From an uncultured Bacteroidota bacterium (GTDB taxonomy: Bacteria; Bacteroidota; Bacteroidia; Bacteroidales; 4484-276): a stretch of DNA of 64,000 nucleotides. Made by a program: the position numbers and the translations under genes. The stretch lies in assembly GCA_937950125.1 (NCBI GenBank), contig CALFEP010000306.1, positions 168 to 64,167 on the forward strand, given 5' to 3'. Shown here piece by piece: positions 44,233 to 47,698 of this stretch. Positions within the stretch are counted from its first letter, which is position 1; each line of letters starts with the position of its first letter. The notes under the pieces are model-generated. The model saw only the letters and a list, made by a program, of their open reading frames with translations. It was not told the origin of the DNA and did not search any database.

Positions 44233-45933
44233 ATGAAACATATTGTGCTTTTGGCTTTTGCTTTTGTTTTCGCCTTGCCAGTATTTTCTCAGATTTATCC
44301 TGACAAATACCTGGTTGAGTTTACTGACAAAAACAATTCACCGTATTCAATTCAGAATCCTGCAGCGTATTTATCACCACGGGCTATTGACCGGAGGGAA
44401 AGGTACGGAATACCAATTGATGAACTCGATCTGCCTGTCAATCCCCAATATTTGCAGGCAGTTGCTGATGTCGGTGTTCAAATTATCAATCCCACAAAAT
44501 GGCTTAACGCAGTGACAATTTATACCGATAATCCAGAAAAAATTTCAGAAATTCAGGCTTTACCTTTTGTAAAAAATGTTCTGAAATGTTTTTTAGGCAC
44601 AAAATCATCTTCAGGTAAAGCATTAGATCCGTTTTCGCTAAATAAACCTTTTGGTTATGATGAAGCATTTGAAGGGTTTTTATCGACAACTAAATCGTCA
44701 AATGCAACCACCTCACTCGATTATGGGCAGGGCTTCAATCAAATCGATATGATAGGCGGGGTTGGACTTCATGACCAGGGTTTTCAGGGGCAGGGAATGG
44801 TTATTGCTGTTTTGGATGGAGGATTTACTGCCACCGACGTGCTCGATGCCTTCGACAGTCTTTACATGAATGGTCAGATTTTGGGAACACGCGATTTCGT
44901 GAGCGGCGGAACCAATGTTTACCAGGGTTCGGGACACGGAACAGCGGTACTTTCCACCATGGGCGCAAATCTTCCTGGGCAACTGATAGGAACAGCACCA
45001 AAAGCAAGTTATTGGCTTCTGAGAACTGAAGACACTGGTTCAGAATACATTATTGAAGAATTCAATTGGGCTTCAGGCGCCGAGTTAGCCGATAGTGTGG
45101 GTGCAGACATTATCAACTCATCATTAAGTTACAAAACCTTTGATGACCCACTGTATGACCACAGTTACGAAAATATGGACGGAAACACCGCTCCATCAAC
45201 AAGAGCCGCAGATATTGCAATGAGTCGCGGAATGGTGGTTGTCAACAGTGCCGGCAACGATGGGAACTCATCAACCTGGCCATGGATTGGCGCCCCGGCT
45301 GATGGTGACAGCGTTTTCAGCATTGGAGCCGTTGATTCTGAAGGCGTTTATGCGTCTTTTAGTTCCATTGGCCCTACCTACGATGGCCGGTTGAAACCAA
45401 ATTTTGTTGCTCAGGGCAAAAATACCGTAATAGCGTCTTTAAATGGAGGAATTGGTACCTCAAGCGGTACATCGTTTTCATCACCCATTATAGCAGGAAT
45501 GACAGCTTGTTTGTGGCAAACCGACCCCACAATGACTAACATGAATCTGCTTAATGCCATTCAGATGAGTGCAAGCCAGGCTATTAACCCAGATTACCAA
45601 ATGGGTCACGGAATACCCGATTACACAATGGCAAGTATCATTCTTTCAGGGTTTAATCCTGATTTGGTTAAAGAAACAAACCAAATTGATGTCTTCCCAA
45701 ATCCTTTTGATGATGAATTGAAAATCGTTTACAATTCACCCGATACCCACAACATCAGCATCGAAATCTATGACATGAAAGGAAGACTCATGTTTTCACA
45801 ACAAAACATCAACAGAAGGGTAGGGTTGAATTATTATCAAATCAAAGGATTAATTGATTTGGATAAAGGTGTGTACTTTTTATCAATTTCTTCAAAAGAG
45901 GTCATTACTACCCAAAAGATCATCAAGTTTTAG
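44233..45933 (+). CDS. S8 subtilisin-family serine protease with T9SS type A CTD
   Basis: Catalytic triad IAVLDGG, HGTAVLS, GTSFSSP; NSAGN; CTD VFPNPF...IYDMKGR...GVYFL...KIIKF. Confidence 0.93.
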   Translation: MKHIVLLAFAFVFALPVFSQIYPDKYLVEFTDKNNSPYSIQNPAAYLSPRAIDRRERYGIPIDELDLPVNPQYLQAVADVGVQIINPTKWLNAVTIYTDNPEKISEIQALPFVKNVLKCFLGTKSSSGKALDPFSLNKPFGYDEAFEGFLSTTKSSNATTSLDYGQGFNQIDMIGGVGLHDQGFQGQGMVIAVLDGGFTATDVLDAFDSLYMNGQILGTRDFVSGGTNVYQGSGHGTAVLSTMGANLPGQLIGTAPKASYWLLRTEDTGSEYIIEEFNWASGAELADSVGADIINSSLSYKTFDDPLYDHSYENMDGNTAPSTRAADIAMSRGMVVVNSAGNDGNSSTWPWIGAPADGDSVFSIGAVDSEGVYASFSSIGPTYDGRLKPNFVAQGKNTVIASLNGGIGTSSGTSFSSPIIAGMTACLWQTDPTMTNMNLLNAIQMSASQAINPDYQMGHGIPDYTMASIILSGFNPDLVKETNQIDVFPNPFDDELKIVYNSPDTHNISIEIYDMKGRLMFSQQNINRRVGLNYYQIKGLIDLDKGVYFLSISSKEVITTQKIIKF

Positions 45934-45962
45934 TATCGGCTAATCATATTATTGAAGGAAAG

Positions 45963-45989
45963 GCAGGAGAATACTCCTGCTTTTTTTTT
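45963..45989 (+). terminator. Intrinsic terminator after the S8 protease
   Basis: GCAGGAG-AATA-CTCCTGC followed by T9. Confidence 0.8.
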
Positions 45990-46281
45990 GAATAATCTTT
46001 TGTATTTGCTATTTCTGCAATAACCCTATTCTTAGTAGCTGGTTTTTAATTTTTTACATTAAATCTTGGTACGCCAACCTAAATCCACATCTCGTTTTAA
46101 TCAGAATATTCAGGATTAAAAGAAATTTTGTGCCCGAATAGCATATTTATTTCCACATATTCAATTCCATCTCCATTTTAATTAAATCGTTTTAATCTCA
46201 CGTGCATGATTAGGGTAGGGCAGGGAAAAAAAGAAACATCTCAATAACATTCCTTTACATTAGTGATTTTGCAATTAACAT

Positions 46282-46342
46282 TTACAAACGTAACATCAAT
46301 ATCTTAACAATTGTAAATCTATTTATTTGATTACATTTGTAA
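46282..46342. promoter_or_regulatory. Distal triplet of palindromic TTACAWWTGTAA sites
   Basis: 46282 TTACAAACGTAA, 46305 TAACAATTGTAA, 46331 TTACATTTGTAA. Confidence 0.6.
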
Positions 46343-46590
46343 AATATGATGTCAAAATATCATGAATTTTGTAAAACGAATGAAATTCATGGAAATAATC
46401 AACTAAAATTTTATGATCGACTAATATCCAGTAATTTATAGAACTTACCTGAATTAAAAATAAAAAAAATACCTGAATTATCCTTAAAACATAGCATCGC
46501 GTTAATTGATTCGATTAACTTATTAAATATTAGCTATTTATTGCATTTATCTTGGTTATTAATTGATTTTTTTACTCATGTGAATCGCAA

Positions 46591-46649
46591 TTACAATTGT
46601 ATTTTATGTAAATTTACATTTGTTATTATTAAATGATTTACTTTTGTAA
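46591..46649. promoter_or_regulatory. Proximal triplet of palindromic TTACAWWTGTAA sites overlapping the XRE gene promoter
   Basis: 46591 TTACAATTGTAT, 46614 TTACATTTGTTA, 46638 TTACTTTTGTAA. The last site contains TACTTTTG (-7) and ends 15 nt before the ATG. Confidence 0.6.
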
Positions 46650-46664
46650 AAATTATAATAAATT

Positions 46665-47195
46665 ATGGAAACGATGCAGGACAGAATAGCATTAATAATT
46701 TCGACCAAAAATTTGACCAATGCAGAATTTGCTGAGGCCATAGGTGTTCAGCCTTCAAACATCAGTCACATCATGTCTGGACGAAACAATCCCAGCCTGG
46801 ATCTGGTTAAGAAAATTTTGAACCGTTATCCTGAAATCCGGCTTGAATGGTTGGTAAATGGTAAAGGGGCAATGACCAAAGAGTTGAACCTTTTCGATTA
46901 TGAAAATCAAAAATCAACCAATGTAAAATCTGTTGCCAAAAGTGCAGATGCACAGGATATAGTAAAACCTCAAACCGATTCGGTGCAAATACCGCAGGCA
47001 TTTGAAGATAAATTGCCCGAAAAGGTGTCAGAAATGATTAAAAAAGAGGAAGATAAAGGTAAATCGCTGTTAGGTTCATTCAGGGAGGAAATAGAAAAAA
47101 AGTTCGAACCGCATAAATCAAATCCAAAAAAGGTGGAAAGGATTGTGATTTTTTATGAGGATCGAACTTTTATTGAGTACAAACCTGCTGATTAA
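46665..47195 (+). CDS. XRE-family HTH transcriptional regulator with Bacteroidota C-terminal VERIVIFY motif
   Basis: [39 protein letters not shown]-terminal [15 protein letters not shown]. No S24 peptidase domain seen. Confidence 0.88.
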
Positions 47196-47611
47196 AAGCG
47201 CTCGAGGCGTGAGAAGAAGAAATCGGATTCGATTACGGCGTTTTCGTCACTATCTGAACCGTGCACGGCATTGGCCTGGATTGAGGTGCCGTAAAGTGCT
47301 CTGATTGTACCTGCTTCGGCATTAGCTGGATTTGTGGCGCCAATCAGTTTCCTGTATTCTTCAATGGCATTTTCTTTTTCAAGAATGGCTGCCACTATAG
47401 GTCCTGATGACATAAATTCCACAAGATCGTTGTAAAATGGTCTTTCGGCATGAACAAGGTAAAACTGTTTGGCCTGGTCAGCGGTCAATCGCATGAATTT
47501 CATTGCTACAATCCTAAATCCTGCTTCATTGATTTTGGCTAAAATAGGGCCGATAAATCCTTTCTGAACGGCCACAGGTTTGATCATTGTAAGTGTTTTA
47601 TTTCCTCTCAT
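47192..47611 (-). CDS. ndk: Nucleoside-diphosphate kinase
   Basis: [32 protein letters not shown]. Likely start is ATG 47611. Confidence 0.96.
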
Positions 47612-47640
47612 TGTAAAATTGTAAATTAAATGGTGTGGTA

Positions 47641-47698
47641 CAAAAATAGCATTACCCTGTCTATACAGTGGCATTTAACGTTTTTTATTATACTTTTG
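47641..47698. promoter_or_regulatory. Divergent -7 elements for ndk (minus, 47641-47648) and nrnA (plus, 47691-47698)
   Basis: TATTTTTG on the minus strand and TACTTTTG on the plus strand. Confidence 0.55.

Follow-up and report, generated by a model that had tools for sequence, protein, structure and literature searches.

The 731-nt gap that precedes an XRE/Cro-CI-type regulator gene in this uncultured Bacteroidota bacterium is probably the control region of that gene, through which the gene product would repress its own synthesis cooperatively, with a distal cluster of sites acting as an auxiliary operator. The putative operators are 12-bp palindromes with the core TTACA-WW-TGTAA, placed ~23.5 bp apart in two clusters which are themselves separated by ~300 bp. 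The features of the locus are collected in Table 1, using the coordinates of the window (the whole 64-kb stretch of DNA that was analysed). The arrangement represents an uncharacterised form of an otherwise familiar regulatory design, and it is conserved widely among Bacteroidota; a search of the literature found neither this XRE family nor its Bacteroidota operator described, and the sources give the protein generic names only. A preliminary description of this DNA had already read the region as an autoregulatory operator with looping between distant sites. The autoregulatory part of that reading is largely right, whereas looping is unproven.

Table 1. Coordinates of the regulator gene, the elements of its control region and the convergent neighbour. 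Positions are those of the window.
Feature	Position	Strand	Description and basis
Intrinsic terminator	45963-45989	+	GCAGGAG-aata-CTCCTGC followed by a T run; read from sequence
GGGTAGGG island	46213-46220	+	~35 nt left of the distal cluster
Distal site D0, TTACATTAGTGA	46255-46266		weak, 2 mismatches; 12.7 bits with a matrix from other genomes
Distal site D1, TTACAAACGTAA	46282-46293		pattern match; conserved island in 76-91% relatives
Distal site D2, TAACAATTGTAA	46305-46316		pattern match; close-relative alignment
Distal site D3, TTACATTTGTAA	46331-46342		perfect match; conserved; 18.7 bits
Distal half-site D4	46363-46374		TGTAA at 46370-46374; column TGTaAat in family and close-relative alignments
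Central spacer element, TAATATCCAGTAATTTAT...TTACCTGAATTAAAAATA	46422-46462		family-specific
Proximal site P1, TTACTCATGTGA	46573-46584		3 mismatches here; better in relatives
Proximal site P2, TTACAATTGTAT	46591-46602		pattern match; close-relative alignment
14-nt palindrome, ATGTAAATTTACAT	46606-46619		read from sequence
Proximal site P3, TTACATTTGTTA	46614-46625		covers the would-be -33 element region
Proximal site P4, TTACTTTTGTAA	46638-46649	+	holds the -7 box TACTTTTG, 46639-46646
XRE/Cro-CI-type regulator gene	46665-47195	+	176 aa; HTH_3 E=4.5e-10
N-terminal five-helix HTH domain	46665-46880	+	residues 1-72; AF2 pLDDT ~90 or more
C-terminal beta-hairpin	47133-47192	+	residues 157-176; AF2 and alignment
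ndk	47192-47674	-	convergent; overlaps the regulator stop codon by 4 nt; NDK E=3e-53

Six matches to TTACAWWTGTAA with no more than one mismatch (at 46282, 46305, 46331, 46591, 46614 and 46638) are all that the 64-kb window contains, and they are confined to 370 bp of the gap. The distal sites are spaced by 23 and 26 nt and the proximal sites by 23 and 24 nt, with an offset of 309 nt between the clusters, which reproduces every coordinate first reported for them. The gap itself (45934-46664) was recomputed as 731 nt of 25% GC in which the only ORF of 40 aa or more is one overlapping the gene start, in agreement with its earlier designation as AT-rich and ORF-free. The array is real and far beyond chance: 5000 AT-matched, dinucleotide-preserving shuffles of the gap's own sequence, a comparison which the preliminary description had proposed, contain 0.07 sites on average and never more than 2, as opposed to the 6 observed, so AT-richness is no explanation for it.

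Alignment of the gap with those of four close relatives, in which the regulator protein is 76-91% identical, reveals the palindromes as conserved islands amid diverged AT-rich DNA, with P3 and P4 invariant. This footprinting adds the weak sites D0 and P1 (the latter reading TTACTTATGTAA and TTACATTTGTAC in the aligned relatives), the half-site in D4 and an orphan half-site at 46607-46611, and each cluster therefore holds four to five sites. The two clusters seen at the outset thus stand, but not as strict triplets. The perfect 14-nt palindrome which had been said to overlap the proximal cluster is found in its place, and consists of the orphan right half-site TGTAA abutting the left half of P3; the same 12-bp offset between sites recurs at other loci. 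On its left, the control region is bounded by the intrinsic terminator of the upstream gene (an S8 peptidase/T9SS-cargo gene by Pfam assignment), whose hairpin and T run are kept in the close relatives. The central element between the clusters (consensus TAATA(A/T)CCAGT...TTAYCT) is conserved at -235 to -260 in most loci of the bacterium's own family and is rare outside it. Read as TAATATCCAGTAATTTAT...TTACCTGAATTA, it resembles an IHF-type site in part only, and after it there is a direct repeat of TACCTGAATTA (46446-46456 and 46470-46480, 24 nt apart). A small ORF in the spacer (46346-46441, 31 aa) is not kept in a 91%-identical relative.

The two-cluster layout recurs upstream of orthologues when the footprinting is extended to 91 loci from Bacteroidales, Flavobacteriales and Cytophagales. 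Against a background of 0.16 sites in 700 nt of control DNA, a weight matrix finds means of 2.4 proximal and 2.3 distal sites in these loci, the proximal ones being concentrated near -30, -55, -80 and -100. For the 64 loci with full flanks, site density was counted per 100-bp bin relative to the start codon and peaks twice: once at -100 to 0 (111 sites) and again at -500 to -300 (46 sites in the -400 to -300 bin and 30 in the -500 to -400 bin). The bins from -300 to -100 hold 14-15 sites each and those elsewhere ~1. Neighbouring sites are most often 22-24 bp apart, with smaller maxima at 12, 34 and 46-47 bp, and so describe a lattice of ~23.5 bp; the lambda-like spacing originally noted at this locus is a property of the orthologous loci too.

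Paired sites are also associated with the regulator gene. Across 41 relatives, the exact paired pattern occurs ~14 times upstream of the XRE gene, in 11 genomes, and at 5 places elsewhere in ~175 Mb, none of them near an XRE homologue, while the reversed control pattern gave 1. In 151 genomes of the phylum this pattern, which is too strict to tell much, has 4 off-target places, none of them by an XRE orthologue. Because the genes on either side of the array vary from lineage to lineage (a metal-binding ABC protein, a glycosyltransferase, a peptidase, a DHH protein or, in the bacterium's own family, ndk), the array can be assigned to the XRE gene, and the comparison supports its being a conserved cis-regulatory element that travels with that gene. 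Two loci with the helix variant IQRSTLS (L027 and L109) have no full palindromes in the upstream 120 nt; they display four TTTGTAAA/TTTGTGAA half-sites in direct orientation, spaced by ~20-27 bp, and these may represent a derived form of the operator.

The regulator is a member of the XRE/HTH_3 superfamily (39.9 bits for HTH_3 against a Pfam cut-off of 23). Its first ATG, at 46665, is absent from the closest relative, so that translation probably begins at the second, at 46674 (MQDR...), to give a protein of 173 aa. In an AlphaFold2 model built with 51 homologues, the fold of the HTH domain matches those of P22 c2, 434 repressor and 434 Cro (TM 0.82-0.85 with Foldseek), and residues Q29, S31, S34, H35, R40 and N41 of this domain are invariant in the alignment. 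The domain is followed by a linker of ~80 residues (75-155) that is predicted to be disordered (pLDDT below 50 for residues 88-132), and then by the C-terminal hairpin, with strands at residues 160-163 and 169-172 (pLDDT ~92). The hairpin corresponds to an almost invariant motif, ExIVxFYxDxTFxEYxP, in which I160, V161, F163, Y164, D166, F169 and P174 each show conservation of 90% or more. Alignment and confident structure prediction thus agree on the conserved VERIVIFY strand that had been picked out from the single protein, and the modelled hairpin is a candidate oligomerisation module. Pfam gives HTH families only for this protein, with no S24 or other domain. An orthologue is present in 36 of the 41 relatives, most genomes having one full-length copy, and relatives of the protein are encoded in at least 598 stretches of the species-representative genome collection; the carriers include Flavobacterium, Epilithonimonas, Riemerella, Hymenobacter, Marinifilum and Alkaliflexus.

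The position of the proximal cluster points to a role at the promoter. [quoted passage not shown] The proximal cluster does therefore cover this promoter element, as had been suggested, and the last site carries the TT centre of a gene-facing -7 box in 65 of 103 loci. XRE/Cro-CI-type regulators recognise palindromic operators sequence-specifically, in most cases at their own promoter among others. We infer that the XRE protein itself binds the palindromes, putatively with its Cro/CI-type HTH domain in dimeric form. With P3 and P4 occupied, the sigma-A RNA polymerase would be excluded, and we would expect the autoregulation to be negative because these two promoter-proximal sites cover the -33 region as well as the -7 box. 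The hairpin, carried on a long flexible linker, would provide the contacts that make binding to neighbouring sites cooperative and may also connect the two clusters through a loop. The distal cluster would serve as an auxiliary operator, making repression sharper or stronger. The geometry of binding is uncertain since only ~7-8 bp separate the half-site centres, less than in the 434 or lambda operators.

Looping between the clusters is plausible but unsupported. A naive test of distal-proximal phasing returned an 11.25-bp period which arises from within-locus dependence; under a per-locus null, the distal-proximal distances have no helical phasing (p=0.12), and the spacers have no A-tract phasing or periodicity (largest z-score 2.0). 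With both tests negative, looping is left without positive support. Cooperative autoregulation, the other half of the original proposal, fits a conserved array that covers the promoter with lambda-like spacing, together with the conserved C-terminal hairpin. The distal cluster could also serve another purpose.

A second reading of the overlap between operator and promoter is possible, if doubtful: the operator may have converged on the sigma-A -7 element, making the XRE protein a global promoter-mimic repressor with a titration array at its own gene. The perfect site D3 contains TAnnTTTG, and a protein of this type would read a subclass of housekeeping promoters directly, in competition with RNA polymerase. 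The 8-10 sites at its own gene would then form a high-capacity homeostat that sets its free concentration, and contacts from hairpin to domain across the flexible linker would polymerise the protein along the 23.5-bp lattice. The 5.8-Mb genome contains 116 TTACAWWTGTAA sites with no more than one mismatch, and isolated copies lie 20-50 nt ahead of start codons, like ordinary promoters. The early caveat that the motif resembles a -7 element was thus well placed, and single sites are ambiguous because the motif overlaps the general -7 consensus. Under a third-order Markov model the motif has no genome-wide enrichment (38 intergenic sites versus 27-52 simulated, and 79 coding sites versus ~110), and a larger regulon in this genome, which a scan for the 12-mer had been hoped to define, is rejected. 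Nor do arrays occur close to any of the four genes of the DHO_dh (pyrD) family. The two XRE clusters are the only places in the assembly with two or more sites within 150 bp, and a weight matrix derived from other genomes likewise ranks them first.

It is distinctly doubtful that the sites are operators of another protein that controls the XRE gene, such as a winged-helix repressor of the BlaI/MecI/CopY type or a global regulator. The core of the palindrome, TACAnnTGTA, is almost identical to the published CopY/CopR box (ACAnnTGT/TACAnnTGTA; PMC7253601), and the genome encodes three proteins of the Penicillinase_R family, which are winged-helix readers of such boxes, whereas the gene adjacent to the array encodes an XRE protein. 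No covariation between the recognition helix and the motif was detected that would link the XRE protein to the sites; the sole deviant helix class, IQRSTLS (2 loci), keeps the TTTGTAAA half-sites and is not decisive on this point. Against this, the three BlaI-family genes have different palindromes upstream, with TACAnnTGTA absent, which speaks against a BlaI/CopY-type binder and rules out membership of a BlaI/MecI/CopY regulon. In this genome the arrays are confined to the XRE gene, and across the 41 relatives they are nearly so confined, which is the pattern expected of self-regulation and not of a regulator with its own locus elsewhere. Two clear BlaI-family genes have upstream tandem palindromes that are likely to be their own operators: GTACGAAGTATTTCGTA / GTACGAAACATTTCGTA on contig C26 (48720-48980) and AACTAAAAAAATAGTT / AACTAAAATATTAGTT on contig C256 (48465-48720).

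The sites might also be mainly stacked sigma-A -7 boxes that serve several transcription starts, including a leftward distal promoter for an unannotated RNA bearing CCCUACCC. In addition to the -7 box within D3 and the isolated promoter-like copies, this reading can draw on the centres of the distal cluster, which lean towards AA (56, versus 35 for TT) and hint at a possible leftward promoter there, on the strand-specific GGGTAGGG island just left of the distal cluster, and on RNA contigs over the distal cluster in a rumen relative, although these are unstranded and of low depth. At -400 to -750, ~25 of 90 orthologous loci have GGGTAGG on the gene strand, as opposed to a single CCTACCC in that interval, and the island is fixed at -452 to -485 within the bacterium's own family; it is not a general repeat in this genome. 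Possible interpretations are a G-rich structure, a binding site of some further factor, or the complementary strand of a C-rich stretch carried by a leftward RNA. A pure promoter cluster is nevertheless unlikely, because an AT or TA centre disqualifies ~23% of the array sites as -7 boxes (D2, with an AT centre, on either strand), because motif positions outside the -7 consensus (C4, A5 and T10-A12) are conserved in close relatives, and because a regular lattice of 22-24 bp is unexpected of independent promoters. The sites with AT or TA centres also indicate that the palindrome itself is what is conserved. No conserved ORF was found in the gap on comparison with relatives, and an Rfam search of 45500-47300 returned chance-level matches only, none at E<0.1.

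The orthologous gene is expressed in rumen metatranscriptomes (locus L054, from a rumen MAG). One RNA contig over the gene, from a single unstranded run, begins 1 nt past the last operator (contig at L054:1497-1705, operator at 1485-1496), and the spacer and proximal cluster are uncovered by RNA contigs in 8 runs. These observations are suggestive, if weak, evidence for the autoregulatory reading. Positions 1708-1755 of L054, which encode the invariant recognition helix, draw contigs from many other organisms. For the bacterium itself, the only RNA run contains a relative's contig over the regulator gene and ndk.

A chromosome-organising or replication site (an origin, a centromere-like site or a nucleoid anchor), which the preliminary description had offered as its alternative, is very unlikely. 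Although the tract is long, AT-rich and ORF-free with many repeats of one motif, the cumulative GC skew does not turn at 46 kb and shows no switch in the window, DnaA boxes are absent from the gap and occur in the window at a number equal to chance, and an origin is ruled out on both counts. The element occurs at one locus per genome with no other arrays, always with the XRE gene, and its position is fixed to the XRE start codon while the neighbours vary. A structured RNA (a long 5' leader or a small RNA) is the least probable explanation: the upstream region is long and of conserved length, but it has no Rfam match, conservation is limited to short palindromic islands in either orientation with free divergence between them, and the spacer and proximal cluster lack RNA contigs in the 8 runs of the rumen relative.

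By analogy, the system appears to resemble lambda-type multi-operator autoregulation, and also the controllers of restriction-modification (R-M) systems and the C repressor of phage P2. As with lambda CI, a Cro/CI-type HTH domain is joined by a linker to an oligomerisation element (a candidate only in the present case), several palindromic operators ~23-24 bp apart from centre to centre overlap a promoter, and a second operator cluster lies at a distance; the centre-to-centre spacing of lambda OR1-OR2-OR3 equals the ~23.5-bp lattice. The differences are also clear. The clusters are ~300 bp apart instead of 2.4 kb and contain four or five sites each, no divergent lytic promoter is evident, and the gene is a chromosomal and mostly single-copy Bacteroidota gene as opposed to a prophage gene. 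Repressors of the lambda CI/LexA type have a C-terminal S24 peptidase with a Ser-Lys dyad that undergoes RecA-stimulated self-cleavage. The XRE protein lacks this autocleavage domain and has in its place an 18-residue hairpin after the ~80-residue disordered linker, and is thereby ruled out as a repressor of that type.

The C proteins of R-M systems, C.Esp1396I and C.AhdI among them, form small XRE dimers and bind cooperatively to tandem, short-spaced palindromes before their own gene, with half-sites a few bp from the dyad, and they are fold neighbours of the XRE HTH domain (2b5a and 1y7y; Foldseek). They are single-domain proteins of ~80 aa encoded in R-M operons, whereas the genes near the XRE gene encode an S8 peptidase, ndk and a DHH phosphoesterase. 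With no R-M gene nearby, and with sites 22-24 bp apart instead of the 15 bp that separates C-boxes (PMC2995052), an R-M controller protein is ruled out. The P2 C protein shares the XRE fold (2xcj; Foldseek), and two of its dimers cooperate in binding a pair of promoter-spanning sites whose centres are 22 bp apart (PMC2995052). P2 C reads two direct, non-palindromic 8-bp repeats, whereas the present sites are palindromic, come four or five to an array and include a second cluster. The protein also matches the NCBIfam antitoxin models far below their cut-offs. Type II antitoxins with the XRE fold (HigA, HipB and MqsA) have an adjacent, co-transcribed toxin gene, and this class too is ruled out, there being no partner ORF, with ndk convergent downstream and no conserved ORF upstream.

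Beyond polysaccharide utilisation loci, transcriptional control in Bacteroidota has, to our knowledge, been mapped poorly. The XRE family is near-universal and mostly single-copy in the class, and its control region is among the most elaborate conserved ones that can be found from sequence alone. If the autorepression model holds, the locus would offer a ready, portable repressor/operator pair for synthetic biology in Bacteroidota, a natural example of operators built on a phylum-specific -7 box and, via ChIP or deletion in Bacteroides or Flavobacterium, a handle on what the regulator controls. If the protein is merely a local autorepressor, it would be a tidy and ordinary case of XRE self-control.

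The neighbouring ndk gene is syntenic with the XRE gene only inside the bacterium's family. Its ORF of 160 aa has an N-terminal extension of 21 residues compared with the 139 aa called in relatives, and so probably starts too early, the real start being internal. An apparent second cluster of sites on contig C209 was dismissed as chance, as it falls inside a 1488-aa ORF. That ORF (C209:11498-29047, locus L036) is very long, at least 1488 aa as read and extending to ~5800 aa on a crude map; it contains several chance copies of the palindrome and probably encodes a giant secreted repeat protein.
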